Source: a virus. Taken from it: a stretch of DNA of 64,000 nucleotides. A model generated the notes under the pieces. That model was not told the DNA's origin. It did not search any database and saw nothing but the letters and a program-made list of their open reading frames with translations. Made by a program: the position numbers and the translations under genes. Every line of letters begins with the position of its first letter. Within the stretch, counting starts at the first letter, position 1. Where the stretch lies: IMG/VR virus record IMGVR_UViG_3300045988_183451. One strand, given 5' to 3'. This document shows, piece after piece, positions 21,431 to 61,515 of this stretch.

Positions 21431-22564
21431 ATGACTGAAAATTATACAAACCGTTCATTAGAAGAAATTTTAGAAAAAAACAAAAATGAACTTTTTAGTG
21501 AAATTGAGGAGTATTTAAATAATGAAAAGATAACTGATATTGAATGGGATGGAGTTCATTTATGGATAACAGAATTGGGGAAAGGCTGTTATAAAACAAA
21601 TAAAAAATTATCAAAAGAATTTATAAATAATTTAAGTATTAGATTAGCAAATATTATGAAAACAAATTTTAATACACAAAATCCAATACTTGAAGCGCAT
21701 ACTAAAGAATTAAGAATTTCAATTTTTCATGAAACAAGAAGTGAGGAAAAATCATTAACAATAAGAAAAATTCCAACAAATTTAAGGTACGACCACGATA
21801 TTCTTATAGCTAATGGAACAATCCCAGAAGAGCTGCTTAATTTATTAGAAAATTGTATAAAAGCGCATTGCAACATAGTAATAGGTGGAAGACCCCATGC
21901 AGGAAAAACAGAATTGCTTAAGTATCTATCTAATTTTATTCCAGCAAATGAAAAAGTTGTTACATTGGAAGATAATGCAGAAATTCATTATAGAGAAATA
22001 CACCCAGATAGAAAATGTGTTCCCTTTTTAGTAGATGATAAAGTAACATATTCAGATGCTATTAAGGCTTGTTTAAGACACAATGCTGACTGGTTATTAT
22101 TATCAGAATCTCGTGGTCCAGAAATTGTAGAGCTTATAAATGCATTAAGTACTGGTAGTTATTGTATGACAACTATTCACGTAGATGGTGCAAGAGACAT
22201 TCCAGATAGAATGTATAACATGCTTGGAAATAGTAGTGATTCTCCTAGATTTATAAATAATATTTATCGTTATATGGATGTAGGAGTAATGATAAAAGCA
22301 GATAAGAAAGAAAATAGAGTTGTTTCAGAAGTAGGTTTTTTTAATAGAACGAATATAAAAAAAGAGGATGGCTCATATACAACTGAAAACATTTATACCC
22401 CTTTTTATAATACGTTTGAAGGTATTAAAGATAAGGATACATTACCTATTAATATAAAAAGAGCTTTTAGTAGAGCAAAAATAGATAATCCTTTTGAAAG
22501 ACCAGAAACACCAAAAGATATCATTTTTGAAAGGAGTAATAAAACAAATGAAGCAGCAAATTGA
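21431..22564 (+). CDS. CpaF/TadA/VirB11-family secretion ATPase
   Basis: Walker A GGRPHAGKTELL, TLEDNAEIHY, Walker B/Asp-box DWLLLSESRGPE, His-box MTTIHVDGARD; about 377 aa. Confidence 0.7.
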   Translation: MTENYTNRSLEEILEKNKNELFSEIEEYLNNEKITDIEWDGVHLWITELGKGCYKTNKKLSKEFINNLSIRLANIMKTNFNTQNPILEAHTKELRISIFHETRSEEKSLTIRKIPTNLRYDHDILIANGTIPEELLNLLENCIKAHCNIVIGGRPHAGKTELLKYLSNFIPANEKVVTLEDNAEIHYREIHPDRKCVPFLVDDKVTYSDAIKACLRHNADWLLLSESRGPEIVELINALSTGSYCMTTIHVDGARDIPDRMYNMLGNSSDSPRFINNIYRYMDVGVMIKADKKENRVVSEVGFFNRTNIKKEDGSYTTENIYTPFYNTFEGIKDKDTLPINIKRAFSRAKIDNPFERPETPKDIIFERSNKTNEAAN

Positions 22565-31216: not shown

Positions 31217-32791
31217 ATGGGTTTAGGTATTGGAATATTTGTAGTTATAGCAATAATAGTATTATTACTTATGAGTTACATAAAAGCACCTACAGATAAG
31301 GCGTTTATTGTATCAGGTTTAAGAAAAAAGCCTAAGTATGTAATAGGAAGGTCAGCATTTAGAATTCCGTTTTTACAGAGAGTAGATAAGCTTGAATTAA
31401 AGATGATAAGTGTTGATGTTAAAACAAAGGAATCAGTTCCTACAAATGAATATATCAATGTAAATATTGATTCAGCAGTTAAAATTAAGGTTGGATTATC
31501 TTCTGAAATGTTAGAAAAAGCCGCTAATAACTTCTTAAATAAGAATGATTCATATATTAGAGACCAGGTTGTTGATGTACTTGAAGGTAATGTAAGAGAG
31601 ATTATCGGACAGATGAAGCTTGAAGAAATTGTTCAGGATAGAAAACTGTTTGCTGAAAAAGTACAAGAAAATGCTGCTCCTGATATGGAAAAGATGGGTC
31701 TTGAAATAGTAAGTTTCAATGTTCAGAATGTTACTGATGAAGGTAATGTTATTGAAAACTTAGGTATTGATAGAGTGGTAAGTATTTCTAAATCAGCACA
31801 GATTTCAAGAGCAGAAAGTGAAAGAGATATTGCTGTTGCTAAAGCTAATGCTGAAAAACAGGCTAATGATGCAAGAATTGAAGCAGAAACAGCTATTGCA
31901 GAAAGAAATAACGAACTTGAAATTAAGAAGCAGGAGTTAAAGAAGGCTGCTGATATTAGAAAGGCTGAAGCTGATGCTGCTTATGAAATTCAGGAACAGG
32001 AACAGCGAAAGACTATTGAAATCACAACTGCTAACGCTAATATTGCAAAGCAGGAAAAGGAAATCGAACTTAGAGAAAAGGAAATTGCTGTTAAGGAAAA
32101 GACACTTGATGCTGAAATCCGTAAGCAGGCAGAAGCAGAAAAATATGCTGCACAGCAAAAGGCAGATGCAGACCTTTACTTAAGACAGAAAGAAGCCGAA
32201 GCAAAACAGTTTGAGATTGTTAAGCAGGCTGAAGCTAAGAAGTCACAGGCAGAGGCAGATAGATTTGCTAAAGAACAGGAAGCCGAAGCTATTAAGGCAC
32301 AGGGATTAGCAGAAGCAGAAAGCATTAAGGCTAAAGGTATCGCTGATGCGGAAAGTATTAAAGCAAAGGGTATGGCTGAAGCTGAAGCTATGGAGAAGAA
32401 AGCAAATGCTTATGAGAAGTACGGTAAAGCTGCTATGACAGATATGATTATTAAGATACTTCCAGAAATGGCAGGACAGATTGCTAAACCTCTTGAAGCT
32501 ATTGATAAGGTTACTATTATTGATGGTGGTAACGGAGAAACAGGTGTAGGTTCATTTAGCGGTAATGTTCCTTCAGTACTTGCAAAGACTATTGAATCTG
32601 TTAAGGAAACAACAGGATTTGACCTTACAGAGGTTATGAAAGCTAATACATATGATGCTAAGACAACTAAGAATGTTAATTTTACAGGACTTCCTAATGA
32701 AGTCAATGTAGATGCTTCTAACACTTCTGATATAGATGATGTATTTGAAAATACTGATTTTGATAAGGCTATGAAAAAGCTTTCTGATTAA
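31217..32791 (+). CDS. flotillin-like SPFH/band-7 protein (FloT/YuaG-like)
   Basis: N-terminal TM then SPFH domain (KAFIVSGLRKKPKYVIGRSAFRIPFLQRVDKLELKMISVDVKTKE), long Ala/Glu-rich coiled coil with EA repeats, about 524 aa. Confidence 0.7.
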   Translation: MGLGIGIFVVIAIIVLLLMSYIKAPTDKAFIVSGLRKKPKYVIGRSAFRIPFLQRVDKLELKMISVDVKTKESVPTNEYINVNIDSAVKIKVGLSSEMLEKAANNFLNKNDSYIRDQVVDVLEGNVREIIGQMKLEEIVQDRKLFAEKVQENAAPDMEKMGLEIVSFNVQNVTDEGNVIENLGIDRVVSISKSAQISRAESERDIAVAKANAEKQANDARIEAETAIAERNNELEIKKQELKKAADIRKAEADAAYEIQEQEQRKTIEITTANANIAKQEKEIELREKEIAVKEKTLDAEIRKQAEAEKYAAQQKADADLYLRQKEAEAKQFEIVKQAEAKKSQAEADRFAKEQEAEAIKAQGLAEAESIKAKGIADAESIKAKGMAEAEAMEKKANAYEKYGKAAMTDMIIKILPEMAGQIAKPLEAIDKVTIIDGGNGETGVGSFSGNVPSVLAKTIESVKETTGFDLTEVMKANTYDAKTTKNVNFTGLPNEVNVDASNTSDIDDVFENTDFDKAMKKLSD

Positions 32792-33950: not shown

Positions 33951-34838
33951 ATGAGAGATTGGATAAAAAATATTCATACTGTTGATAAGACTTGTGTGAA
34001 TTCTGAAGGAGAATATTATAAATACACAGAATTTGATAGAAAACCAATATCTTTATATATCGTTGTAACAAGAGATTGTAATGCTAGATGTCCTTTTTGT
34101 GAATATAGAGGGAAAACCGAAAAAATTGACATCAGTAAATTTGAGGAAATTTTTATTGAGTTAAGTAAATATTATGATATTACAACAGTTCATTTTACAG
34201 GTGGAGAACCTACCTTAGAATTAGATACAATTAATGCGTTAAGTAAAACTATAAAAGAAATATCTCCTTTATACAAAACAAGTGTTAATACTAATGGAAT
34301 ATTTTTAAATGAATTGTCTAATATAGATACAATAGATAATATTGCTTTAAGCAGACACACTATTATAGATAAAGATAATTTTGATATTTTTAGAACTAAT
34401 AATATTGCTACATATGAAGACATTTATAATAATAATCATAAGGAAAAAATCCATTTGAGTTGTAATCTTATAAGAGGATATATAGATGGTAGTGATAAAA
34501 TATTAGAATATCTTGAAATGGCATCTAAATTAGATATAAATGATGTAGGTTTTGTTAGTCTTATGGATATAAATGATTATTGTGAAGAAAATTTTGTAGA
34601 CTTTAGTAATATAATTCCAAAGGAAAATAACTTTTTTAATAAAACAAGAGATTATAGGTGTATTAATAATAAGAATGTAATTACTTGTAAGTGTGAAAAT
34701 TATCTTTATAGAGCTAAAAATATGAATTTTGTATCAATGTATCATAGATATGTTATTAAGAATAATGAAAAAGCAGATTTTCTTGTTTATGAAAACAATC
34801 ATTTAAAACAAGGATTCAATGGAAATATTATTATATAG
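33951..34838 (+). CDS. radical SAM enzyme (MoaA/SPASM-like class)
   Basis: CNARCPFC Cx3Cx2C motif in VVTRDCNARCPFCEY; HFTGGEPTL SAM-binding glycine motif; C-terminal Cys cluster CINNKNVITCKC; SD aataggagttctatattATG. Confidence 0.65.
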   Translation: MRDWIKNIHTVDKTCVNSEGEYYKYTEFDRKPISLYIVVTRDCNARCPFCEYRGKTEKIDISKFEEIFIELSKYYDITTVHFTGGEPTLELDTINALSKTIKEISPLYKTSVNTNGIFLNELSNIDTIDNIALSRHTIIDKDNFDIFRTNNIATYEDIYNNNHKEKIHLSCNLIRGYIDGSDKILEYLEMASKLDINDVGFVSLMDINDYCEENFVDFSNIIPKENNFFNKTRDYRCINNKNVITCKCENYLYRAKNMNFVSMYHRYVIKNNEKADFLVYENNHLKQGFNGNIII

Positions 34839-35949: not shown

Positions 35950-36747
35950 ATGAAAGAAGTAACAAGTAGAGAGTTTGCTAATGGAAAAGTATATATGTTA
36001 ATGACTGATGATAATTATCCTATAGAAGTGACTGATACTTTTTTACCTTTCTATACAAAGGATTGTATTAATGAACACACGAATGAACTTAGGGAAGATG
36101 TGCTAGGTTCAAGAGAAGAAAGATGGATGATTGGCGTTAGTTGTATGAGTGGTTGTCCTGTAAGATGCCAATTTTGTAATACTGGGAAATTAAAAAGATA
36201 TAGAAATTTATCTGCAAAAGAGATATATGAACAGGTTGTTTTTATATTAGACAATCATCCAGAGATAAAAGAGATTAATAGTAAGGAATTTAAAATTAAT
36301 TATACAAGAATGGGAGAACCTTTCCTTAATATTGAAGCTGTAAAAGAAGCTATTACTCTTATAGACAATGAGCCAAGACTAAAGAATGTCAAGATACATC
36401 ATTATATAAGCACAATAGGTCTTAAAGGCAGTGATTTTAGTTTTGTAAAGGATAATATTACTTTACAAATTAGCCTACATAGTCTTAATGAGGATAGAAG
36501 ACATAATCTTATTCCTATAAAGGGTCTTATGAGTATAGAAGAATTAGGACAGATAAGAACTAATAGTAATTTAAAAACAACTGTTAATATGACGCTTGTA
36601 GATACAAAAGACTTTGATATTAATATTATGAAAAAGTATTTTGACCCTAAGTATTTTTTTATTAAGCTTAGTCCTATTAATGAGAATGAGGTTAGTAAGG
36701 AACATAATATGGGTAAAGGTATTATTCATAGAGATAATTTAATTTAA
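35950..36747 (+). CDS. RlmN/Cfr-like radical SAM RNA methyltransferase, truncated (265 aa)
   Basis: GVSCMSGCPVRCQFCNTG (compare RlmN SQVGCALECKFCSTA); YTRMGEPFLN (compare MGMGEPLLN); ISTIGLKGS...LQISLHSLNEDRRHNLIPIKG (compare LSTSG...[21 protein letters not shown]); lacks the N- and C-terminal extensions of RlmN. Confidence 0.6.
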   Translation: MKEVTSREFANGKVYMLMTDDNYPIEVTDTFLPFYTKDCINEHTNELREDVLGSREERWMIGVSCMSGCPVRCQFCNTGKLKRYRNLSAKEIYEQVVFILDNHPEIKEINSKEFKINYTRMGEPFLNIEAVKEAITLIDNEPRLKNVKIHHYISTIGLKGSDFSFVKDNITLQISLHSLNEDRRHNLIPIKGLMSIEELGQIRTNSNLKTTVNMTLVDTKDFDINIMKKYFDPKYFFIKLSPINENEVSKEHNMGKGIIHRDNLI

Positions 36748-36870
36748 GATTTATTACGAATACCACATCAAGCATTATTGGTGTGGTATTTTTTTACTTG
36801 TAATGTATCTCCAATTTGGATATAATATAACAAAAATAGATTGTGGTATAAAAGAAAAAGAGGAATTTTT

Positions 36871-37305
36871 ATGTATAATAATATTTCAAGTAATATAAAA
36901 GGATTAAGAAAAATAACAGGATTATCACAAAGCGAATTTGCTTCTAAATATAAAATACAAAAGAGAACCTTACAAAATTGGGAGCAAGGTATATCAAAAG
37001 CACCAGAGTATTTTATAGACCTGTTATCAAAAGATATTCTAAAGACAAATGATACAACAAAAACATATACTATTACTGGAAAAAAGGGAAAATATATCTA
37101 TAATGATTGTAAAGGACGTCTTATAGACGATAAAGGAAATAATATTAATATAAAAATACCTGATTTTGATAAGATAAATAAACATAATTTAGGTTTGTAT
37201 TGTGACTTTTTATTTGAAGATTATAAAAATAGTATTAAAGATTTTATAAATCAATGTAAAGGAGATATAAAATCAGATGTAATATGGACTACTTTTGATA
37301 ATTAA
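36871..37305 (+). CDS. XRE-family HTH protein (HipB-like antitoxin candidate)
   Basis: IKGLRKITGLSQSEFASKYKIQKRTLQNWEQGISKAP helix-turn-helix; SD aagaggaatttttATG at 36871 (track start 36841 is non-ATG). Confidence 0.55.
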   Translation: MYNNISSNIKGLRKITGLSQSEFASKYKIQKRTLQNWEQGISKAPEYFIDLLSKDILKTNDTTKTYTITGKKGKYIYNDCKGRLIDDKGNNINIKIPDFDKINKHNLGLYCDFLFEDYKNSIKDFINQCKGDIKSDVIWTTFDN

Positions 37306-37308
37306 AAG

Positions 37309-38580
37309 ATGAAAGGAAAATTTATGAAAGATTATATATTAATGCATAAGAATATTGAAGTAGCATTAATGAAGTTAGATGAAAATGATGCTAATTCAAA
37401 ACCATCAAAAATATATCTGAATGAAAAAGAACAAGACCATATTCCTATTGGAGCAAGGATGAATAATATTAAATTCATTAACTGGTGGCAGGATAGAGCA
37501 ATACCTAAAACAAGACAGGGAGCAAAAACAGCCCTACAAAGATTAGGATATAGTTCAGTTACTAATGCTATGATAAATAATCTAGCCTTAAGTCTTAATG
37601 ATTGCTATTGGATTAAGCCCAGATATTCAGAACTTACCTGGGAAGAAGTTAATTTATTTTCAAATAATTTTGTTGATGCTTTTGGAGAACTTACCTTTAA
37701 CCAAACAGAAGATTTAGATTTGAGAAGATATACTAAGTTTTTAAGTGCTGTTTCACAAGGAGAGGTTCAAAAAAAATGGTGTATAGATAAGAATAATCAT
37801 AGGTATCTTGTAAAAGGTAATTATGGCAATTCATATCAACAAAGTATTAATGAGGTGTTTGCAAGTAATTTTCATAAAGACCAGGATTTTAATAATTATA
37901 CTCCTTATTATTTTTGTAATATTGAACTTACAAATAGTAGAAAAGGATTAGGATGTTTTTCTTATAATTTTTGTAATGAAAATATTGAGAGTATTTCAGC
38001 TTGGGAATTATTACAAACTAGAAAGATTAAACAAAATGAAAGCTTATATTATCCTTTCAAAGATATATGTTTATCACTAGGAATCAAAGAAGATGATTTT
38101 GATAATTTTATTGATTATGAGATTTGTAGTGATTTTTTATTTACTAATCTTGATAGACATATGAATAATATCAGTATTTTAAGAAATCCAGATACATTAG
38201 AAATATTAGGGTTTGCTCCTATATATGATACTGGAAATAGTATGTTTTATAATGTTCCTACTAATGAATTAAATAATGTTAAGTTAGGACAAGATAAAAC
38301 ACATTCATTTATAACGTCAAAAGAAAATAGATTACTAAAGTATGTTAGAAATAAAGAGATTATAAACATAGACAAAATTAATGCTGATTTCTCAATATAC
38401 GAAAAGGATATTTATGATAATGATTTAAGGATTTCTTTATTAAAAGAAAAATTTGAAAGAAAAGTAGATTTATTGTTGTCTTTTCAAAAAGGTAATAATA
38501 TATGGGAAGATAATTATAATAAATCATATATACAAAAATTTAATAATCTAATAGGAACTGATGAAATTGATTTAGATTAA
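37309..38580 (+). CDS. HipA-like Ser/Thr kinase (toxin candidate)
   Basis: Catalytic loop FLFTNLDRHMNNISIL (D-x-H-x-x-N) and APIYDTGNSMFY (HipA YD motif); alternative start ATG 37324. Confidence 0.6.
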   Translation: MKGKFMKDYILMHKNIEVALMKLDENDANSKPSKIYLNEKEQDHIPIGARMNNIKFINWWQDRAIPKTRQGAKTALQRLGYSSVTNAMINNLALSLNDCYWIKPRYSELTWEEVNLFSNNFVDAFGELTFNQTEDLDLRRYTKFLSAVSQGEVQKKWCIDKNNHRYLVKGNYGNSYQQSINEVFASNFHKDQDFNNYTPYYFCNIELTNSRKGLGCFSYNFCNENIESISAWELLQTRKIKQNESLYYPFKDICLSLGIKEDDFDNFIDYEICSDFLFTNLDRHMNNISILRNPDTLEILGFAPIYDTGNSMFYNVPTNELNNVKLGQDKTHSFITSKENRLLKYVRNKEIINIDKINADFSIYEKDIYDNDLRISLLKEKFERKVDLLLSFQKGNNIWEDNYNKSYIQKFNNLIGTDEIDLD

Positions 38581-43698: not shown

Positions 43699-44496
43699 AT
43701 GATGATAGCTTTAACATATAGATGTAATATGGGATGCACTCATTGTATTTCAGATTGTAAACCAGATGGAATAGATATGAGTAAAGACACCCTAATTGAT
43801 AGTCTTGATTTTATAAATAAACATAAAATAAAAGCAATATTATTTTCTGGCGGTGAACCATTTGCGCATCCAGATATTATATCTTTACTTGATGTTATAG
43901 AAGAAAAATTAGATAAGAATATCCCTATTACCTTTGCTACAAATGGAAGAGTTTTAGCAGATAATATTGAAATTTATGAAAAAGTATCTGAATTAGTTAA
44001 GAAAAATAAGAAAAGAATAATCATACAGGTTACAGATGATGATAGATTTTACCCTACTAAACTTAATGAAAAACAAAGATATAGACTAGAAAAAATAGGT
44101 GCTATTATAGAAGGCGTTCCTAGTTATGTTTCTGATAGAAATAAATGTTTATATCCACAAGGTAGAGCTTTAGATAATTTTGATGAATCTTTTTATTATA
44201 CTATTGCTCCTAAATGTGTAAATGTACGATTATTAGTAAGACAGAATATAAATAAAATATCAAATATATGTGATACATTGCTTATGAGAGGAAAAATGTG
44301 TACTCCAGTAATTGCTCCTAATGGTATGTTAAAAATAGGAGAGTCGGCTTTGTGTCCTGAAGTAGCTTCAATTTATGATAATGAAACAGATATTATAAGA
44401 AAAATATCTCATTTTAATTGTAATAAATGTACATACGCACTTGAACAGTTAAAGAGAAATAACTTACTTGCTTATAATCTATTAATAAAGGAGTAA
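43699..44496 (+). CDS. radical SAM enzyme (MoaA/SPASM-like class)
   Basis: ALTYRCNMGCTHC Cx3Cx2C; LFSGGEPFAHPD; C-terminal Cys-rich region including FNCNKCTY; SD aaaaggtggtacttaaaatATG. Confidence 0.65.
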   Translation: MMIALTYRCNMGCTHCISDCKPDGIDMSKDTLIDSLDFINKHKIKAILFSGGEPFAHPDIISLLDVIEEKLDKNIPITFATNGRVLADNIEIYEKVSELVKKNKKRIIIQVTDDDRFYPTKLNEKQRYRLEKIGAIIEGVPSYVSDRNKCLYPQGRALDNFDESFYYTIAPKCVNVRLLVRQNINKISNICDTLLMRGKMCTPVIAPNGMLKIGESALCPEVASIYDNETDIIRKISHFNCNKCTYALEQLKRNNLLAYNLLIKE

Positions 44497-52453: not shown

Positions 52454-55219
52454 ATGGATAATACAAATAATAACGTAATTGAGTGTATGGTTCATCTTGA
52501 AAGATTTAATGAAAAACCAAATAAGTTTCAGATAGGTTCTATTCAGAATAATATGCATCCAGAAACTATTCAAATTGAATATCTTGCAGAATCTCTTGTT
52601 AATGGTGCTTCTTTTAAGCCAGGAGTATTGATAGGTGGACGTTCTAAAGATAACTGGGTAAGACAACAGCTTTTCGGATTAGATTTTGATGATGGAACTC
52701 CAATAGAAATCTCTTATAGAAAAGCTATTGATTTAGGATTAACACCTATTTTTATGTATACTACATTTAGTCATACATCAGAACATCATAAGTATAGAAT
52801 GATTTTTTGTGCAGATGAAGTAATTACAGATGGAAATAAAAGAGACAAGCTTCAAGCAACTCTTATGGGAATAATGGGAGATATAGACAAGGTTTGTTTT
52901 AATAGAGATAGATTATTTTTTGGTGGAAAAGGTAAAGAAGTACTTTTTCCTAGTTTTAATGCAAGAGTTAATGCTAACGAAGTAATTAATAAATATTGGA
53001 AAGATGAATATGCTGCTTTTATAAGTGGAAATACATCTTCAAGCAAACAGAAAAGAACAAAAAAAGTAAGTACTAAAAATACTTTAACAAGTATAAATAC
53101 ATCAAATGTAATTAATTATGAACCATTAATAGATGAGGAAATAAAAGCAGCTTATCCTGTAAAATGTGTTTCTATGTATAATTTAAAATGCTTAAAAGAA
53201 TATTTTGACTATAATGTATGGATTGAGGGGTCTCATAGAGAAAGATTTATATTCATATATTATAACTGTTCTAAAATTATAAATGGTTCGGTACAGGCTT
53301 TTAAAGAATGCTTAGAATACAATAGGGAGATGGATGAGCCATTATCAATGTATGAATTAAAATCAGCAATAATGCATACAGATGAGCATATTGAGAATAA
53401 AGATTGGTATAGACTAGCATTACATGACAATGGCAGTTTTATTTTTAAGCCAGAAACTATTATAAGTGAAAAATGGTTAGATATAAACGAAGATATAGCA
53501 AAAGCTTGTGGATTTCTTGACAATAAAATAAATAAAGAGAATATACTTAAGAATAAAGAAAGAGACAGACAGAGAGATAAAATGATAGCAGAATTATATT
53601 TATCTGGATTAGGTTATCAGAATGTATCTAAGGCATTACCGGAAGAATATAAATGTTGTAAGAATACTGTTAAAAGAACAGTAGAAAGACTAGGAATTAA
53701 AGACAGAAATATATCTTTTAATAATATACAATTTGAAGAAAAGGAAAAGTATAAGCGTGTAGGGGTGCAAACATTGACTAAACTAGAAAAAAGTTCAAGC
53801 TTCCCTATCTTCTCTAACATAACTTCAGTAGATGATAAAAATGAAATGAATATATTAGATAAAGAAATTATTAAAGAAGAGAATATTAATAGAATTAACG
53901 CAGGTAGGTATTTAGACAAGACTTGTGAAGAATTGGCTAACAAGGCTAAAGAAGCTAATAAGAAGTCTAATGACAATGAACAAGATATAGCTATAAATAC
54001 AATATTAGCAAATCCTAATATAAATTATTGTTTATACGGTAAAGCTGGTACTGGCAAGAGTTTTTGTATTAATACTTTATTACAAAGGTTATCAGAAGAA
54101 GAAAGAAATAGAACAGTTGTAATAGCTCCAACAGGTATAGCAGCTTCTAATATTACATATGCAACAGCAACAACTATACATTCATTATTTGAGTTACATA
54201 CATTTATTTACAGTAAAGATAGTTCTATTAAGATACCTAACAAGTTATTAGGAGTAAGAAGAATAATTATAGATGAAATAGGAATGGTTAGGAAAGATAT
54301 ATTTACACAATTAATAAGAGTTGTTAAGGCTGTTGAAGAAAAGACAGGAAATAAGATACAACTCATCTTTTCAGGTGACTATGGTCAGATTTCTCCAGTT
54401 GTTACTAAGAAAGATAAGGCAATAATAGATATGTATTATGAAGAAAGCAAGAATAAGTATTTTTGTTTTGATAGTCCATTATGGAACGAACTTAATCTTC
54501 AGAATATTGTTTTAAGAAACAATCATAGACATAATAACAATAATAACGATGAATTACAGGAAGAATTTATCAATGCTTGTGATGATATTAAGTTTGGATT
54601 ATTAAACAGAATATCTTGGTTAAACAACAATATAGCTCATACAGCTATTAATGATGCAATATATCTTTGTGCTAATAATAAGCAGGTAGATGATTATAAT
54701 TCACTTTATACTAAGGATTTTATAGGAACACAAGTATACAAAGCTAAGATTGAATTAGGTGAAAGATATAATGAAGGATTTAATCTTAACAATGTTAAAC
54801 TGCCTGTAAAAGCAGAATTAAATTTAGCAGTAGGCATGCGTGTAATGACACTTGTTAATACAAAGAGCTATAAGAATGGAAGCTTAGGTACTATCACAGC
54901 ATTATTAGACAACAAGGTAAAAGTTAAGTTAGATAGTACTGGAAGAGAAGTAACAGTAAGAGCTGCTAAATTTGATATTGAAAGCTTAGAGGAAAGCAAT
55001 ATGTATCAGATACCAATAGCAATAGCATATGCAATAACAGTAAATAAAGCACAAGGATTAACACTTGATAAGGCTAATATCGTTCCAGGATTTTTTGCAC
55101 CAGGACAGTTATATACAGCTATTACAAGAATAAAAAATGTACATAACATAAGTATAATTGGTGACTTAAAAGAAAGTGATTTAGTTGTAGATTCAAGAGC
55201 ATTAAGTCTAATAGCTTAA
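52454..55219 (+). CDS. replication protein: N-terminal AEP-type primase-polymerase (PrimPol) domain, central HTH, C-terminal PIF1/RecD-like SF1B helicase
   Basis: N-terminal FGLDFDDGTPIE (DxD) and FSHTSEHHKYRMIF (sxH..H) AEP motifs; HTH IAELYLSGLGYQNVSKALPE; C-terminal LYGKAGTGKSFCINTL, IIIDEIGMVRKD, YAITVNKAQGLTLD, YTAITRIKN; SD aaagaaaggggttttgttttATG. Confidence 0.65.
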   Translation: MDNTNNNVIECMVHLERFNEKPNKFQIGSIQNNMHPETIQIEYLAESLVNGASFKPGVLIGGRSKDNWVRQQLFGLDFDDGTPIEISYRKAIDLGLTPIFMYTTFSHTSEHHKYRMIFCADEVITDGNKRDKLQATLMGIMGDIDKVCFNRDRLFFGGKGKEVLFPSFNARVNANEVINKYWKDEYAAFISGNTSSSKQKRTKKVSTKNTLTSINTSNVINYEPLIDEEIKAAYPVKCVSMYNLKCLKEYFDYNVWIEGSHRERFIFIYYNCSKIINGSVQAFKECLEYNREMDEPLSMYELKSAIMHTDEHIENKDWYRLALHDNGSFIFKPETIISEKWLDINEDIAKACGFLDNKINKENILKNKERDRQRDKMIAELYLSGLGYQNVSKALPEEYKCCKNTVKRTVERLGIKDRNISFNNIQFEEKEKYKRVGVQTLTKLEKSSSFPIFSNITSVDDKNEMNILDKEIIKEENINRINAGRYLDKTCEELANKAKEANKKSNDNEQDIAINTILANPNINYCLYGKAGTGKSFCINTLLQRLSEEERNRTVVIAPTGIAASNITYATATTIHSLFELHTFIYSKDSSIKIPNKLLGVRRIIIDEIGMVRKDIFTQLIRVVKAVEEKTGNKIQLIFSGDYGQISPVVTKKDKAIIDMYYEESKNKYFCFDSPLWNELNLQNIVLRNNHRHNNNNNDELQEEFINACDDIKFGLLNRISWLNNNIAHTAINDAIYLCANNKQVDDYNSLYTKDFIGTQVYKAKIELGERYNEGFNLNNVKLPVKAELNLAVGMRVMTLVNTKSYKNGSLGTITALLDNKVKVKLDSTGREVTVRAAKFDIESLEESNMYQIPIAIAYAITVNKAQGLTLDKANIVPGFFAPGQLYTAITRIKNVHNISIIGDLKESDLVVDSRALSLIA

Positions 55220-56360: not shown

Positions 56361-56391
56361 TAACTCTTTTTTGTTATTTTTTTACTTTTTA

Positions 56392-56401
56392 ACACTATTA
56401 T
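56392..56401 (+). promoter_or_regulatory. conserved ACACTATTAT promoter-like motif
   Basis: ctttttaACACTATTATtataaaaaaacagaaaaggagtttgaaaatatATG. Confidence 0.45.
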
Positions 56402-56433
56402 TATAAAAAAACAGAAAAGGAGTTTGAAAATAT

Positions 56434-56629: not shown

Positions 56630-57034
56630 ATGGATATTTTAAATTTTGAGGACATAATAACACTAATTATATTATGTGCTATACCGCTTTTTTTAATAGT
56701 ATCATCTGTATTTAACTGTAAAATATTACCAGGTATCTTTATCTGCATAATTCTAATATCAATATTAGTAGTAATATCTTCTGAAGCATTATTAGACAAT
56801 GCAGTTCCAACAGAAAATAGAACTGAAATACAGGAAATAATAGAACAAAAATCGACAAGTCAAAACTTTAATATAAGAGTGACATATAAAGACTTATCAG
56901 GTAACACAAAGGAAGCACTTGTTATAGATGCAAAGACCTCTGATGATGATATTTCTTATTCATATATAGAGACTAAAACCTATAAATATGGTTTCTTGTA
57001 TAAAGATGTAAATACATTATATTTTAGAAGGTGA
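56630..57034 (+). CDS. membrane protein
   Basis: SD aaaaggagaaataatATG; two TM helices. Confidence 0.45.
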   Translation: MDILNFEDIITLIILCAIPLFLIVSSVFNCKILPGIFICIILISILVVISSEALLDNAVPTENRTEIQEIIEQKSTSQNFNIRVTYKDLSGNTKEALVIDAKTSDDDISYSYIETKTYKYGFLYKDVNTLYFRR

Positions 57035-57039
57035 TTTTA

Positions 57040-57708
57040 ATGAAAAATATAAGTAAAAAGAAATCATTCTGGAAGGAATTTTTTAATGAGTGTTATGGAA
57101 TGATAGTACTCGGAGCAATTACGATATATATTGTTTTATCTGCCATTGTAGGAAATTTGATATTGCCATGTATAAATAATGGAGAAGCAATAAATCCGTG
57201 TATAGAAGATGTAAGCGGTAAGTTTACATTATTTGTAATAAAAACAATCATAGGTGGTTTGTATTTATTTGGTGTTATTTTCATACTATTAATTGCTTTT
57301 TCTATTATAGGCATAATTGTAATAAAATTAGTAACTGGAATAACGCATATACTAGCTGTAAAACGATATACATACCTACCATTAACAATAGATGAAGTAA
57401 AAGAAGCTATAAATGTAGGATTATTTGAAGATACTCCTGAAAGCTATACAGATTATCTTGCAAAACAGATGAAGTATTTTGATGGCAGTGTAACCTTTTC
57501 AGTTGATGATATGAAAATGATAATAAAAACAATAAAAGCAATATGGAATCAATCATTTAAGATTGATAAAGATTTTCTTATCAGAAATAAAATAGAAAGT
57601 TATCATCAGCTTCCATTTGGACTTAAGGATGACAGAGCCGATTTATTTTGCAAATTAGAGAAAAACCAAACAGTATCTTTTGATATGAACGACGTTTATT
57701 TCATTTAG
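57040..57708 (+). CDS. membrane protein, KKSFW-family paralogue
   Basis: MKNISKKKSFWKEFFNECYGMIVL...; SD agaaggtgattttaATG (track start 57031 is 9 nt earlier); ends TAG. Confidence 0.5.
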   Translation: MKNISKKKSFWKEFFNECYGMIVLGAITIYIVLSAIVGNLILPCINNGEAINPCIEDVSGKFTLFVIKTIIGGLYLFGVIFILLIAFSIIGIIVIKLVTGITHILAVKRYTYLPLTIDEVKEAINVGLFEDTPESYTDYLAKQMKYFDGSVTFSVDDMKMIIKTIKAIWNQSFKIDKDFLIRNKIESYHQLPFGLKDDRADLFCKLEKNQTVSFDMNDVYFI

Positions 57709-57885
57709 AACATCAGGTGAAAAGCTGCTTGCATTAAGCGTGAAATTAATGAGTTTTCACAAGAAGCCACAGAAGAATAACAATATCTGGTTTTTGTTAT
57801 TGTTTTTTATACCTCATAAATAATAAAATATTATTTTTTAATAAGAGCTGTATTAAAAAACAGTTCTTATTTTTTTATGTTTTTT

Positions 57886-57895
57886 ACACTATTAT
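57886..57895 (+). promoter_or_regulatory. conserved ACACTATTAT promoter-like motif
   Basis: tttttACACTATTATttataaatgg. Confidence 0.45.
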
Positions 57896-57945
57896 TTATA
57901 AATGGAGAAGAAATAAATAATATAAATAAAGAGGAAATAAATAAT

Positions 57946-58146
57946 ATGAGAACAAGAAAAATACTTAGAGCAAGGACATTGCAAGGTGATTTAATAATGG
58001 AAGATATAAATCATTTTACTGAAGATAAATATAATTATATTTTTATAATTCAAATTAATAAGATAAATAAGAAAATGATATTTCCCAAAAAATTATATCG
58101 GTTAGAAAGAATAAATAATTTTATAGATGTAGAAATAAGAGGATAA
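57946..58146 (+). CDS. small basic hypothetical protein
   Basis: SD aaagaggaaataaataatATG; the track start 57877 would precede the promoter motif. Confidence 0.35.
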   Translation: MRTRKILRARTLQGDLIMEDINHFTEDKYNYIFIIQINKINKKMIFPKKLYRLERINNFIDVEIRG

Positions 58147-58151
58147 TAAAT

Positions 58152-59024
58152 ATGGATAATACAGCGTTAGCACAAAGAATGAAAAGATATTATGAAGAAG
58201 TACCCAAGACAAGATTAATAAGGAAAATACCTGTTTGTATAAGACTTGATGGAAAAGCATTTCATACATTTTTAAAAGGATTTCAGAAGCCATTTGATGA
58301 TATATTTATTAAGACAATGCAGGATACTATGAAATATTTGTGTCAGAACATACAAGGATGTGTATTGGGATATACTCAGTCAGATGAAATCAGTCTAATA
58401 CTTATAGATTATCAAAAACTTACAACAAGTGCTTGGTTTGATTATGAGGTTCAGAAAATATGTAGTGTTTCAGCTAGTATGGCAACAATGGCATTTAATA
58501 GAGCTTTTGAAAAGAATGTAGAAGCTGAAAGTCATGTATTTACTGATGAGTGGTTAGATAATGGAGAATATAATCCTAATTATAAGAGCAAAGAATTAGA
58601 AGACTTATGGTTAACACATAAAAAGGCTTTAGAAAAAGGAGCAATGTTTGATAGTAGATGTTTTAATATACCAAAGGAAGATGTTGCTAATTTAATATTC
58701 TGGAGACAGTTTGATGCTAGTAAGAATTCAGTACAAATGGTAGGGCAGGCTAATTTTTCACATAAAGAATTGCAGAATAAATCTAGTAATGATATTCAAG
58801 ATATGCTTATGATTCAGAAAGGTATTAACTGGAATGATTTACCGACTTATCAGAAGAGAGGAAGTTGTTGTGTAAAAAAGGAAATTGAAAATAAATCAAC
58901 TGGATATAATGGTGAAATCAGAGCTATTGAATATAGAACAGAATGGATTATAGATAAAAATATTCCTATATTCAAAGGAGAAAATAGAAGATATATAAAT
59001 GAATTAATACTTTTTAAGGAGTAA
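58152..59024 (+). CDS. Thg1-like protein (tRNA-His guanylyltransferase family, 3'-5' nucleotidyltransferase)
   Basis: CIRLDGKAFHTF (compare Thg1 VVRLDGRNFHRF), GYTQSDEISLIL (compare AYGQSDEYSFVF), FDSRCFNIP...IFWRQFDASKNS (compare FDGRVVVYP...LSWRQADCHINN), PTYQKRGSCC (compare PMYRKGTVL). Confidence 0.7.
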   Translation: MDNTALAQRMKRYYEEVPKTRLIRKIPVCIRLDGKAFHTFLKGFQKPFDDIFIKTMQDTMKYLCQNIQGCVLGYTQSDEISLILIDYQKLTTSAWFDYEVQKICSVSASMATMAFNRAFEKNVEAESHVFTDEWLDNGEYNPNYKSKELEDLWLTHKKALEKGAMFDSRCFNIPKEDVANLIFWRQFDASKNSVQMVGQANFSHKELQNKSSNDIQDMLMIQKGINWNDLPTYQKRGSCCVKKEIENKSTGYNGEIRAIEYRTEWIIDKNIPIFKGENRRYINELILFKE

Positions 59025-59030
59025 AAATAA

Positions 59031-59228
59031 ATGGATAATGTGTGGCATATATTTGACAAAGAATATCCAGATAAAAAATTAATAAAAGGGAAAAGATATT
59101 TGATTTGCACTTGGAGTAATGAGTATTTTTGTGCTGAATTTACAGGCGAAGATTTTTTCGGATATCCATTATTAACAAAAGCTTGGGCTGAATTTGAAAG
59201 ATTTGAAGAAAAAGAATATAAAAAATAA
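59031..59228 (+). CDS. hypothetical small protein
   Basis: SD ttaaggagtaaaaataaATG. Confidence 0.4.
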   Translation: MDNVWHIFDKEYPDKKLIKGKRYLICTWSNEYFCAEFTGEDFFGYPLLTKAWAEFERFEEKEYKK

Positions 59229-59257
59229 ATTTACAAATAAAAGGGAGAATTTTAGAT

Positions 59258-59686
59258 ATGGGAAGTTATACAAATTATAGTATGGAAATAATAGATATTG
59301 ATAATAAAGGATATAATGCATACAAAATTGCAAAATATATGTTAGAAAAAAATAATGAAGCTGAAAAATATTATGCTTTTTATAATAGTTTAGAAAATTT
59401 TATAGAAACTGTAGACCCTACATCAAAAATAGATTATGAATTATATCTTGATGATGATGGTGAAACTAAATGGTATGATAATGAAGAAGATATGTTAGAG
59501 TTATCAAAAGAATTTCCTGATATACTTTTTAAATTACACGGAGAAGGCGAAAGAAATGAAGATATATGGGATAAGTATTTTATGAATGGAAAAATGCAAT
59601 ATTGTCCAGCAGAAATATATATTCCAGAATTCGATAGAAACAAATTAAAGGAAATAGATAAAGATAATATAGAAATGGATAGGTAA
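59258..59686 (+). CDS. hypothetical acidic protein
   Basis: SD aaagggagaattttagatATG. Confidence 0.45.
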   Translation: MGSYTNYSMEIIDIDNKGYNAYKIAKYMLEKNNEAEKYYAFYNSLENFIETVDPTSKIDYELYLDDDGETKWYDNEEDMLELSKEFPDILFKLHGEGERNEDIWDKYFMNGKMQYCPAEIYIPEFDRNKLKEIDKDNIEMDR

Positions 59687-59691
59687 AGATT

Positions 59692-59952
59692 ATGGAAAAA
59701 AGGACAAATGTATATTTAGCAGAGATAGCTTTTTTAATATTAAGAAATATTCCTAATGGATATTCAAAAGAAGAGGAAGAATATTTTACAAAAGGCGTTA
59801 TATCAATGTCAAATGTTTTATCTAAGTCATTAGATGCTTTGAAAGAAAATTCTAATATAGGAATGGAAGATATAGAAGAAATTATTAAAAAAGAGATTAA
59901 TAATATAGAGGAAATATATAATGAAAGAACAGAAGAACAAAGAGATATGTAG
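59692..59952 (+). CDS. hypothetical small protein
   Basis: Ends TAG. Confidence 0.4.
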   Translation: MEKRTNVYLAEIAFLILRNIPNGYSKEEEEYFTKGVISMSNVLSKSLDALKENSNIGMEDIEEIIKKEINNIEEIYNERTEEQRDM

Positions 59953-60391
59953 GGATATAAGAATAATAAGGTTTAAGTTAAAGGACTATAAAAGTATAAT
60001 TCAAATGTCTAGGAAGCTGGATGACTTACATATAAAGAATAGACCAGATATATTCACAGATGGTTCTATGTTAGGTAATTTTATACTATATTCTGAATAT
60101 TTCTTTAAAGATACTATATTTGTTGCTATTAAAGATAATTGTGTAGTAGGAATGGTTGTAGGTGAGAAATTAAGTGATTTCTGTTATCTGATAAAGGATA
60201 TATTTGCGGAAGAAGAATACAGACATATGGGAATAGGAAAAAGACTAATTGAAGCTATTGAAAATTATGCTAGGAAAAAAGATTATGAGAGGGTTATATT
60301 AAACTGTTATGAATTCAATAACAATGCTAAAGGCTTCTATGAAAATGAAGGATTTAGTTCATATGTAATAACCTATGAAAAGAAATTATAA
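59921..60391 (+). CDS. GNAT-family N-acetyltransferase
   Basis: VVGMVVGEK...EEEYRHMGIGKRLIEAIENYARKKDYERVILNCYEFNNNAKGFYENEGF acetyl-CoA binding motif. Confidence 0.65.
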   Translation: MKEQKNKEICRDIRIIRFKLKDYKSIIQMSRKLDDLHIKNRPDIFTDGSMLGNFILYSEYFFKDTIFVAIKDNCVVGMVVGEKLSDFCYLIKDIFAEEEYRHMGIGKRLIEAIENYARKKDYERVILNCYEFNNNAKGFYENEGFSSYVITYEKKL

Positions 60392-60431
60392 TAGGTTAAT
60401 AAGAAATACTGCTTGTTTTTTACACTTTGAT

Positions 60432-60441
60432 ACACTATTAT
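60432..60441 (+). promoter_or_regulatory. conserved ACACTATTAT promoter-like motif
   Basis: ctttgatACACTATTATaattgtaag. Confidence 0.45.
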
Positions 60442-60480
60442 AATTGTAAGTAAAATAATTACAATAGTGAGGTATCGTGT

Positions 60481-60759
60481 ATGAGAAGAGATGAAGGAAA
60501 ATTATCAAAGATAATAAAGAAAGCATTATTAATAATAATTCTATTTTATATAGCAGGATTATTATTTGCAGACCTGATAGCCAATACAGGAATTGAGTAT
60601 TTAGGAATATTTTTTGTTGTAAGTGGAATTATTTTAACATATTTATTATATAAATACATACCTAGAGTAGTCTGGTATATAAAAACAGCTCCACAAAGAA
60701 GAAGAGAAAGAACTGAAATGAAAAAGTTTATGAAAGATTATAAAAGAAATTATAAGTAA
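60481..60759 (+). CDS. small membrane protein with basic C-terminus
   Basis: Two TM helices then RRRERTEMKKFMKDYKRNYK. Confidence 0.45.
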   Translation: MRRDEGKLSKIIKKALLIIILFYIAGLLFADLIANTGIEYLGIFFVVSGIILTYLLYKYIPRVVWYIKTAPQRRRERTEMKKFMKDYKRNYK

Positions 60760-60832
60760 TTATAAAACTAAATAAATATACAATTAAAGGGTACTAAATG
60801 AATTGAGTTTAGTATCTTTTTTTATATTTTAT

Positions 60833-60842
60833 ACACTATTAT
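60833..60842 (+). promoter_or_regulatory. conserved ACACTATTAT promoter-like motif
   Basis: attttatACACTATTATatatagatattaaaag. Confidence 0.45.
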
Positions 60843-60888
60843 ATATAGATATTAAAAGTAGGGTCACTAAGAAAGGATAGTAGTTGAG

Positions 60889-61515
60889 ATGAATAATATA
60901 AAAACTAAAAAAAGCTTTTGGTCTGTATTTTATAACGAATATGAAGATGAAATTTTAATTATTCTAACATTTATGCTTGTTGTTGGACTACCTTTTATAT
61001 TAGGTTTTATTAATATAAAGATAAAAATAATAGATACAAATAATGAACCATTAAATTTTATTATAGGGTCTTTAAGTTTTTATTTGTTTATAATTGGAAT
61101 ATATTTATTATATCGTATTATATCTTTGTTATATCATTCATTATGGAGTATTGTAAATTTTATATTTAAAATAAAAGCTATGAATAGATGTAGACAAATA
61201 CCATTAACAGAAAATGAATTTAAATTGCTTGATATTAAAAATATAGATGAATTTATAGAGCTAATAGACTCCTATATTTCATATGATTTTAATATTTATA
61301 AAACAAAATATAAAGAATATATTATTAATTACGAAGATATTATAGAAATGATAAAAACATATAATAAGTTAAAAACAATATCATTAGAAGATATGTATGC
61401 GATACAACACTATTTTTTATCTTTAACTTTAGAAATAAGTAATAATAAATTAAGAGAAAAAAATTTTCATTTTGTATGGGATTTCGACAAAATTATAAAA
61501 GAAATTGGATTGTAA
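60889..61515 (+). CDS. membrane protein, KKSFW-family paralogue
   Basis: MNNIKTKKSFWSVFYNEYEDEIL, then TM helices. Confidence 0.5.
   Translation: MNNIKTKKSFWSVFYNEYEDEILIILTFMLVVGLPFILGFINIKIKIIDTNNEPLNFIIGSLSFYLFIIGIYLLYRIISLLYHSLWSIVNFIFKIKAMNRCRQIPLTENEFKLLDIKNIDEFIELIDSYISYDFNIYKTKYKEYIINYEDIIEMIKTYNKLKTISLEDMYAIQHYFLSLTLEISNNKLREKNFHFVWDFDKIIKEIGL

Follow-up and report, generated by a model that had tools for sequence, protein, structure and literature searches.

A Thg1-like protein encoded on a giant conjugation-type element of the human gut

What does a nucleotidyltransferase of the Thg1 family do on a large mobile element of gut bacteria? The question is raised by a stretch of 64,000 nucleotides (IMG/VR virus record IMGVR_UViG_3300045988_183451), called the window in the following. 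The gene at 58152..59024 had been interpreted in a sequence-only reading as a Thg1-like 3'-5' nucleotidyltransferase on a phage-like element, followed by a GNAT acetyltransferase, and serving either against tRNA-targeting defences of the host or in the maturation of tRNAs encoded by the element itself. Our analysis leads to a somewhat different picture: the gene likely encodes an active Thg1-like protein (TLP) of the bacterial and phage class, carried as cargo on a conjugation-type element and probably serving in RNA repair. The features of the locus are collected in Table 1.

The reading frame is preceded by a Shine-Dalgarno sequence (AAGAGGA, 58137-58143), 8 nt upstream of the ATG, and contains the three motifs on which the family assignment had been based, RLDGKAFHTF at residue 31, SDEIS at residue 77 and FWRQ at residue 183. 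Profile searches confirmed the assignment. Pfam Thg1 (PF04446) matched residues 9-174 with 104.6 bits against a cut-off of 29.2 (E=4.9e-30), and phrog_4717, a profile named 'tRNA-His guanylyltransferase', matched with E=3e-85; the Pfam model Thg1C alone stayed below its threshold (23.7 versus 26.3 bits). In a ranking of PDB sequences, the TLP of Bacillus thuringiensis (BtTLP, 4KGK/4KGM, E=1e-62) came before the TLP of Methanosarcina acetivorans (5AXK, 9e-16), and eukaryotic Thg1 proteins followed behind both with 6e-10 to 2e-6. An AlphaFold2 model calculated from an alignment of 71 diverse homologues had a predicted local distance difference test (pLDDT) value of 95.8 and a predicted template modelling (TM) score of 0.90; it replaced a model from a shallow alignment of 32 close homologues that was discarded (pLDDT 54). 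Among the PDB structures recovered with Foldseek, the top 32 matches were exclusively Thg1 or TLP, the best being 4kgm and 4kgk with target-normalised TM scores of 0.91-0.95, and the model comprises the palm fold as well as the C-terminal fingers/hairpin domain. Two minus-strand open reading frames (ORFs) overlapping the gene are low-complexity, AT-rich by-products without matches. The product is almost certainly a genuine Thg1 family enzyme. The gene itself is real and intact and its protein very probably active, as judged from the sequence.

Residue roles were taken from the BtTLP structure paper (PMC3701042) and a 2019 review (PMC6471195) and mapped via the alignment to BtTLP. R31, D33, K46, S77, D78 and E79 of the window protein align to R28, D30, K43, S74, D75 and E76. 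The catalytic carboxylates named in the sequence-only reading, D33 and D78, are conserved on alignment and correspond to the metal-binding D30 and D75 of BtTLP and to D21 and D69 of the M. acetivorans enzyme. The residues of the activation step, K46 and S77 (K44 and S75 in yeast Thg1, ScThg1), and those of nucleotidyl transfer, R31, K102 and R169 (ScThg1 R27, K96 and R133), are present, and D188 is the counterpart of the 'gatekeeper' D150 (bioRxiv 10.1101/2025.10.12.681950). Eight of these residues (R31, D33, S77, D78, E79, K102, R169 and D188) show no variation in 32 clade members and reach at least 90 % conservation among the 71 diverse homologues; K46, present in the window protein, varies between K, R and V among relatives. 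A decaying or functionless passenger gene would fit to surroundings that are full of small ORFs with no known function and have no partner repair genes or tRNAs nearby. However, the frame is full-length with a good ribosome-binding site, all catalytic residues are intact and conserved across the clade, the model is confident and native-like, and the identical protein was present on 9 contigs from different samples. Hence a passenger is an extremely improbable explanation.

The same alignments separate the protein from the eukaryotic enzymes. HINNLYN is not present in the window protein: in the alignment with the yeast structure 5xox, 'DTHINNLYN' stands opposite 'DASKNSV', the stretch at this position reading 'DASKNSVQM'. 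The asparagine of the eukaryotic activation step (ScThg1 N161) is replaced by M196, equivalent to M158 in BtTLP, and D188 and M196 are both invariant across the 32 clade members. With HINNLYN absent and asparagine exchanged for methionine, the protein is therefore a TLP and not a bona fide tRNA-His guanylyltransferase. PDB search and Foldseek gave the same ranking, with sequence and fold nearer to the characterised TLPs than to Thg1. By these sequence criteria it belongs to the TLP subclass of the templated 5'-end repair type. All tested bacterial and archaeal TLPs prefer a Watson-Crick templated 3'-5' repair of 5'-truncated tRNAs, independent of the anticodon (PMC6471195), and it is likely that templated 5'-end repair is also the chemistry of the window protein.

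A true tRNA-His guanylyltransferase would instead add G-1 to a tRNA-His of host or element that lacks an encoded G-1, so that the tRNA can be charged by histidyl-tRNA synthetase. The database labels of the homologues carry this name, BtTLP weakly replaces yeast Thg1 by means of a templated U-1, and TLPs add a Watson-Crick G-1 opposite C73 in vitro (PMC6471195). The motif for anticodon recognition and untemplated addition is nevertheless missing, the activation-step asparagine is a methionine, and the nearest relatives in sequence and fold are repair-type TLPs. A tRNA-His gene was found neither in the window and its flanks nor among the tRNAs near the TLP in 72 related loci (up to 10 kb on each side). 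In addition, the G-1 of bacterial tRNA-His is usually part of the gene and left in place by RNase P, which counts against a guanylyltransferase as well. We consider this function very unlikely.

BtTLP, the closest solved relative, has about 50 % identity over the aligned parts. Both proteins share the metal ligands, the equivalents of K43, S74, R28, K99 and R131 of BtTLP and the methionine at the site of the eukaryotic asparagine, and both are borne by mobile elements. The window protein is 45 residues longer, with a helical insertion and a longer, different beta-hairpin arm, and its neighbouring genes differ. The TLP of M. acetivorans, for which structures with tRNA exist (5AXK-5AXN), has the same fold and belongs to the same mechanism class (target-normalised TM about 0.81-0.84), but it is an archaeal, chromosomal enzyme without the insertion and has about 25 % identity. 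Eukaryotic Thg1 (human 3OTB, yeast 5XOX, Candida 3WBZ) belongs to the same superfamily and shares the palm fold and the two-metal site at 16-22 % identity. It has HINNLYN and the asparagine for ATP-dependent activation, reads the GUG anticodon and adds G-1 without a template; the corresponding sequence features are absent from the window protein. By description only, the protein may be likened to two TLPs of Dictyostelium: DdiTLP3, a repair-type enzyme with proven rebuilding of tRNA 5' ends in vivo, and DdiTLP4, for which likewise no source of truncated tRNAs is known. These two differ by their eukaryotic origin and the context of mitochondrial editing.

Also related are the proteins of phrog_4717 from Bacillus phage Bc431v3 (gp143), Fusobacterium phage Fnu1 (gp147) and Bacillus phage Goe8, with 41-47 % identity to the window protein. 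They are cargo of large mobile genomes that often carry tRNAs (PMC3601020), and a role in RNA repair has been proposed (PMC7824862). In contrast to the window protein, they have about 235-250 aa, lack the insertion and reside in bona fide phages, whereas the element of the window has conjugation genes. The nearest relatives after the sister elements form a clade of gut-phage TLPs, found on IMG/VR contigs of 90-220 kb and in metagenome-assembled genomes (MAGs) of Lachnospiraceae, Clostridia and others, with 59-71 % identity and 271-298 aa. These TLPs share the site of the insertion and the invariant core with the window protein, but the genomic backbone is wholly different, the insertion varies in sequence and length, and some have a Pnkp gene next to the TLP, which the window lacks. 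This clade circulates among large phages of gut Bacillota.

Outside two hypervariable segments, the TLP is very strongly conserved in the alignment of 32 clade sequences. The first segment, about 35-40 residues in length, is inserted after the ASMAT helix and before the FDxR strand. It is missing from BtTLP, against which the HMMER match splits into residues 6-120 and 164-286, and from the PHROG profile; the Pfam domain is stretched over residues 9-174 for 130 profile positions. The AlphaFold2 model has an extended helix 100-131 and a return helix 147-162 (pLDDT about 89-90), followed by the palm strand 165-172. The spacing from ASMAT to FDxR is 58 residues in the window protein against 23 in BtTLP, and ranges from 34 to 64 residues in 86 relatives with largely unrelated sequences. 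The insertion of the window protein is of an NPNYK type that was seen in only 11 of 98 loci, and two of these 11 are copies of the window element. The second segment, the beta-hairpin of residues 238-268, is the indel-rich, mosaic part of the clade alignment. It aligns to the hairpin region of the M. acetivorans TLP, whose homologous arm measures and touches the T-arm of the tRNA in the TLP-tRNA complex (PMC6471195). The hairpin sequence of the window protein is common to three clade members (P0007, P0011, P0103) and not to its closest relatives (P0001, P0003).

How unusual is such a gene on a mobile element? Thg1-like proteins had been described as little reported on phage-like elements, a view that the databases contradict. 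By tblastn, homologues were detected in 161 of 50,697 deposited phage genomes, most of them already labelled as tRNA-His guanylyltransferase; the hosts of these phages include Bacillus, Prevotella, Caulobacter, Mycobacterium, Erwinia and Fusobacterium. The family has a PHROG of its own. Homologues were also present on 30 PLSDB plasmids, and the gut subclade, as recognised by six short peptide patterns, on at least 237 IMG/VR contigs. The best 80 of these 237 are mostly the gut contigs with the sizes and identities given above. A search of 5.8 billion proteins yielded at least 8,000 candidates, and at 50 % identity the family forms 5,529 clusters within 1.84 billion representatives, a rare family though not an exotic one. 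In the literature, a phage Thg1 gene was highlighted in 2013 for Bc431v3 (PMC3601020), and a comparative study and review of 2021 listed Thg1 among the RNA repair functions of jumbo phages (PMC7824862). With the window gene, a family long known from phages and plasmids gains one more ordinary member. The BtTLP that was crystallised matches, at 100 % identity over its 245 residues, a gene located on a 235-kb B. thuringiensis serovar israelensis plasmid (locus L103, NZ_CP013278.1, 147089-147826), where SLOG and GIY-YIG genes flank it; therefore the closest characterised enzyme is itself plasmid-borne. The record of pBtic235 (NZ_CP051859.1) holds a TLP homologue with the same match statistics as this plasmid copy, an agreement in statistics and not at the level of residues. 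pBtic235 belongs to the jumbo phage-plasmids, is inducible and encodes tRNAs (PMC9700832).

The type of the element that carries the window gene was deduced from its other genes. The window has a GC content of about 25 % (range 21-31 %) and nearly all genes on the plus strand. The identical TLP and an identical protein of 1592 aa are encoded on contigs from human-gut metagenomes that reach 291,454 bp; on the contig ena:ERZ27229528:k119_91722 (291,454 bp), the window corresponds to about 131,909-195,908 and the TLP lies near 190,060. Samples carrying the element include ERR1578651 and ERZ919272. About 79 kb, or 27 %, of this contig was visible. PrgI and a VirB4-like ATPase of 821 aa are encoded about 1-4 kb upstream of window base 1, on the locus L099 that covers 10 kb left of the window, and the window encodes a VirB11/TadA-like ATPase and an Amidase_3 wall hydrolase. 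The VirB4-like ATPase matched 2,544 PLSDB plasmids, 1,933 of them predicted conjugative, with Bacillota plasmids as best matches at about 35 % identity. In the phage collection, its matches were almost exclusively unannotated faecal virome contigs. Among these, the records H81-H90 (MT835474 and others, 'Bacteriophage sp.' from human faeces) encode full-length VirB4-like ATPases, which suggests that DNA of conjugative elements was filed as phage in that virome set.

Phage hallmarks (terminase, portal, capsid, tail) were not detected in about 50 window ORFs searched with Pfam and 20 with PHROGs, and neither a relaxase nor a VirD4 coupling protein was recognised in the visible 79 kb. At the DNA level, the window had no megablast match to phages and none to PLSDB or INPHARED; the 1592-aa protein had no tblastn match in the phage or plasmid collections, and the backbone proteins of the element were not found in IMG/VR. 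Related mosaic elements, with patches of 87-97 % nucleotide identity, are located on contigs of 209, 412 and 668 kb: OPLX01000005.1 (209,284 bp), ERZ791865.8-NODE-8 (411,675 bp) and QFCE01002638.1 (668,277 bp). The Hodor megaplasmids of human-gut Bacillota, which are conjugative and larger than 300 kb, with a GC content of 44.6-47.1 %, Rep_3, ParAB and sortases, were first misfiled as huge phages (PMC12934698) and offer a precedent. The element is not a Hodor megaplasmid: its GC content is about 25 % versus 44.6-47.1 %, and no sortase, Rep_3 or Par match was obtained among the scanned ORFs. We conclude from the gene content that it is a putative giant conjugative plasmid or an element resembling integrative and conjugative elements, from a low-GC gut bacterium, and it may represent an undescribed class of giant conjugative element. 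Of the 'phage-like element' proposed before, the mobile character was supported and the phage nature was not, with conjugation genes present and no hallmark gene seen among the ORFs scanned.

Indications of the role of the TLP come from its relatives. Genes near the TLP were clustered for 96 related loci from phage contigs and MAGs. Ten of these loci contain a trifunctional Pnkp of 732 aa with an AAA_33 kinase, a Metallophos phosphatase and an RNA_lig_T4_1 ligase domain (E=1.8e-43, T4-Rnl1-like). In six gut-phage loci (L082, L090-L093, L098), the TLP is followed by the Pnkp gene at a distance of 0.6-1.1 kb; four others (L037, L063, L065, L079) have it about 10.7 kb upstream. In the sister element L101, the TLP is directly followed by a gene for a ligase-like protein of 189 aa (L101:7791-8360) with a KIDG nucleotidyl-transferase motif, which reached 24.5 bits at a cut-off of 25 for RLIG1 (PF17720), a human-type RNA ligase. 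This gene takes the slot of the unrelated 65-aa ORF of the window and has no homologue in the window or in any other locus examined. As Pnkp and ligases are the classical partners in RNA end repair, these neighbours support a repair function for the clade.

Relatives also have tRNA genes near the TLP: within 10 kb, they were found in 10 of 59 viral and in 6 of 12 genomic loci. The acceptor stems of these tRNAs are fully paired; apparent mismatches proved to be register artefacts from the encoded CCA. ARAGORN called some odd tRNA-like genes in TLP-carrying relatives (L028:5146-5216, L031:3791-3861, L012:3566-3642), one with a 2-base 'anticodon' and one with a 4-base anticodon (ttaa) that could belong to a frameshift or suppressor tRNA. 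For the window, the result was negative: no tRNA gene was detected in its 64 kb or in the flanks from -9.6 kb to +5 kb (together about 79 kb of the contig of at least 291 kb), nor about 6 kb further right in related elements, and Rfam had no match on the whole window. The earlier suggestion that the enzyme matures element-encoded tRNAs thus found no substrate in this DNA. In a more specific version of this idea, tRNAs of the element would have mismatched 5' acceptor nucleotides that are removed and resynthesised, as in the 5'-editing by DdiTLP3 in amoebal mitochondria. Such editing is established for a eukaryotic TLP (PMC6471195; bioRxiv 10.1101/2025.10.12.681950), pBtic235 with its BtTLP-type gene encodes tRNAs (PMC9700832), and the frequencies of tRNA genes in the relatives would fit. 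Yet the tRNAs next to the TLPs of the relatives are fully paired in their acceptor stems, and tRNA genes are missing from the window, its 15 kb of flanks and the further right flank of related elements. A 5'-editing function is accordingly most improbable.

The TLP gene stands in a group of co-directional genes (57877-60391) separated by 5-29 nt, except for one overlap of 32 nt; good ribosome-binding sites precede the TLP and the 65-aa ORF, the two whose upstream sequences were read. The GNAT announced as the following gene is real, but three small ORFs of 65, 142 and 86 aa, all in the same direction, stand between it and the TLP. The 89-aa ORF in front of the TLP had no Pfam or PHROG match and is kept at the same place in the sister elements L101 and L102, and the 65-aa ORF is also present in L102 and L109. 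The 142-aa ORF had a weak match to DUF1281_C (17.2 bits, under the cut-off) and no relative in the PDB. The order 89-aa ORF, TLP, a variable gene, 142-aa ORF, 86-aa ORF, GNAT is common to the three sister elements L101, L102 and L109; the TLP of L101 is 74-79 % identical to that of the window (BLASTP and alignment), and L109 has an additional gene before a GNAT of only 53 % identity. Within 10 kb of the TLP in the 96 related loci, no homologue of any other window gene was found, the GNAT included. From the lack of shared neighbours it follows that the TLP is shuffled cargo and its linkage to the GNAT inherited synteny. The GNAT is thus a generic neighbour by descent and not a functional partner of the TLP, and a conserved TLP-GNAT module was rejected on the same grounds, the pair being confined to sister elements.

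By sequence, the GNAT looks like a small-molecule acetyltransferase: its matches to NCBIfam models were all far under the cut-offs, and the nearest PDB chains were streptothricin-acetyltransferase-like proteins and BH1408. A tRNA-acetylating toxin of the TacT/AtaT type found no support in the 29 PDB matches, which were small-molecule or N-terminal acetyltransferases without TacT, AtaT or KacT. PADLOC assigned neither TLP nor GNAT to a system. For the 86-aa ORF, a ribbon-helix-helix (RHH/DUF1778) antitoxin was considered and dropped, as no family or PDB match was obtained and only the overlapping two-gene layout resembles a toxin-antitoxin pair. The 65-aa ORF is not a remnant of the ligase-like gene of L101, to which it has no similarity. 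A presence/absence cassette including the TLP in L105/L107 was likewise discarded: the BLAST pattern was due to a repeated intergenic motif and paralogous membrane-protein genes.

With the cluster in view, a non-tRNA substrate has to be weighed, or an enzyme that mainly performs the first half-reaction, a cap-like 5'-adenylylation or guanylylation, perhaps together with the small ORFs and the GNAT and outside of tRNA repair. TLPs are relaxed in the RNAs they recognise and can use external templates, App-RNA and Gpp-RNA intermediates build up in reactions of BtTLP (PMC6471195), and DdiTLP4 is an essential cytosolic TLP with no known tRNA substrate (bioRxiv 10.1101/2025.10.12.681950). The conserved gene order in the three sister elements and the hypervariability of two tRNA-facing or surface segments would fit as well. 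This order is, however, kept only in close relatives of the element, and no member of it accompanies the TLP in the 96 other loci; the informative neighbours are classical enzymes of RNA end healing and sealing, and the GNAT resembles a small-molecule acetyltransferase. We regard a non-tRNA function as unlikely.

We prefer RNA repair, with activity, substrate and biological role inferred from homology. As a two-metal enzyme with a palm domain, the TLP would activate the 5'-monophosphate end of an RNA with ATP or GTP and would then add nucleotides in 3'-5' direction, using the 3' strand of the acceptor stem as template. Transfer RNAs or tRNA-like helices lacking 5' nucleotides would be rebuilt, most likely as an RNA repair that sustains translation when nucleases of the host or of rivals damage tRNAs.

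Several points weigh against this proposal. We know of no natural source of 5'-truncated tRNAs in bacteria. No Pnkp, RNA ligase homologue or tRNA gene was detected in the window or its flanks, and the window is therefore without the partners that back the repair function in relatives. The insertion and the variable hairpin could alter the substrate choice, and phage modules or tRNA arrays may be located in the remainder of the element of at least 291 kb. A 2026 preprint lists as tRNA-targeting defences PrrC, RloC, PARIS, retron-Septu, Cas12, Cas13, OLD and the toxins MenT and CapRel, which act on anticodon arms by cutting or on the 3' acceptor end by modification or trimming. Cas12a3 is reported to cleave tRNA tails in a 2026 paper. 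In the titles and abstracts retrieved by our literature search, no tRNA-targeting defence that removes 5' nucleotides was described. Also, the in vivo role of TLPs is unknown in organisms without a predictable source of truncated tRNAs (bioRxiv 10.1101/2025.10.12.681950).

The use of repair in conflicts, as proposed for the locus at the outset, has to be seen in this light. Counter-defence is a plausible idea, though not a new one (PMC7824862); that repair is a conflict-related function of this element is possible, but on balance doubtful. Bacillota possess the 5'-3' exoribonuclease RNase J, and a nibbling of tRNA 5' ends by this enzyme is speculation. In a wider form of the idea, bacterial TLPs would mainly be counter-defence genes of mobile elements that rebuild tRNA 5' ends after the attack of an undescribed nuclease class or after 5'-3' trimming. 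The hypervariable segments would then be the record of an arms race with host inhibitors or diverging substrates, and the copy in the window would shield the element on its entry, or the host that receives it, in the course of transfer. This general scheme appears rather improbable to us.

Table 1 Features of the TLP locus and of the element; coordinates refer to the window unless preceded by a locus label
Feature	Position	Strand	Remarks and basis
Terminator-like hairpin, 12-bp stem then T-run	57840..57871	+	Sole such site in 57400-61000
89-aa ORF	57877..58146	+	Ends 5 nt 5' of the TLP gene; start at 57946 has a better ribosome-binding site
TLP gene	58152..59024	+	ATG start, 290 aa
Active-site segment: R31, D33 (metal ligand), K46, S77, D78 (metal ligand), E79	58242..58388	+	BtTLP alignment
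Clade-specific insertion, about residues 121-163, predicted helical hairpin	58512..58640	+	HMMER gap versus BtTLP, AlphaFold2
FWRQFDASKNSVQM segment, residues 183-197, site of eukaryotic HINNLYN	58698..58742	+	Alignment to yeast Thg1 5xox
Beta-hairpin arm, residues 238-268, second hypervariable segment	58863..58955	+	AlphaFold2 strands 238-250, 256-268
65-aa ORF	59031..59228	+	6 nt 3' of the TLP gene; no Pfam/PHROG match
142-aa ORF	59258..59686	+	phrog_6306, E=1.3e-24
86-aa ORF	59692..59952	+	End overlaps GNAT start by 32 nt; no significant Pfam/PHROG/PDB match
GNAT N-acetyltransferase, 156 aa	59921..60391	+	PF00583, 64.1 bits versus 20.7, E=1.9e-17
IrrE/M78 peptidase-domain protein	18654-19304		PADLOC CapP model, E=6e-18
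VirB11/TadA-like ATPase	21431..22564
Flotillin/SPFH gene	31217-32791
Two further radical S-adenosylmethionine (SAM) proteins	33951-34838, 43699-44496		Weak MoaA, NrdG, prokaryotic viperin similarity
Radical-SAM protein, 265 aa, nearest family RlmN/Cfr	35950..36747		TIGR00048
HipA-like kinase	36841-38580		Preceded by a helix-turn-helix gene, HipBA-like layout
921-aa protein, PIF1/Dda-like helicase C-terminal half	52454..55219		PF05970, phrog_325
Repeated AT-rich intergenic motif (TTTTTTTAT..TTTTACACTATTAT)	56376-56409, 57870-57903, 60817-60850		Ahead of several gene cassettes
Paralogous small membrane-protein genes	57031-57708, 60889-61515		34 % identity, E=2e-8
IS605-type TnpB (OrfB_IS605 + Cas12f-like TNB domain) and ADP-ribosylglycohydrolase	L001:15137-17690		About 5-8 kb right of the TLP, past the window end
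Second HipA-like kinase of the element	L001:18557-19783

Further genes of the element were noted. The 921-aa protein carries primase-polymerase-like DxD and sxH motifs in its N-terminal part, recognised by reading the sequence, and is probably the replicative primase-helicase of the element. A second PIF1-like helicase is encoded in the window, and a RuvC-like nuclease on its minus strand. The RNA methylase resembling RlmN, which the sequence-only reading had listed beside the TLP, was retained in part: the protein has a radical-SAM core like RlmN/Cfr, but membership in the family is not established, the match to TIGR00048 reaching 80.1 bits at a cut-off of 290 and covering model positions 91-244 of 355. 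Matches to Cfr models (55-60 bits) were far under the cut-offs, and the N-terminal part of RlmN/Cfr is absent. The PADLOC model pVip matched the two other radical-SAM proteins with E=9e-12 and 4e-10, and all their matches were far below the family thresholds. The HipA-like kinase of the window matched the PADLOC candidate PDC-M03A (E=1.8e-15). In Fusobacterium phage Fnu1, a HipA-annotated fragment and a prohibitin gene follow right after the TLP. CapP, to which the IrrE/M78 protein was matched, is a protease regulator of CBASS-type (cyclic oligonucleotide-based antiphage signalling system) defences. Small membrane-protein families similar to the paralogous genes of the window continue rightward in related elements.

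For the family, the survey has consequences beyond this locus. Bacterial TLPs look like genes of mobile elements: BtTLP is plasmid-borne, on a replicon of the pBtic235 phage-plasmid type, and the relatives of the window protein are almost all located on large phage contigs or plasmids. A minority of relatives have the TLP next to a gene for Pnkp or a ligase-like protein, which is genomic evidence for a repair role that the field could not demonstrate in vivo. If a nuclease trimming the 5' ends of tRNAs exists in gut Bacillota, this widespread clade would be a natural handle for finding it. The giant low-GC element itself is possibly a more interesting object than the TLP gene it carries.

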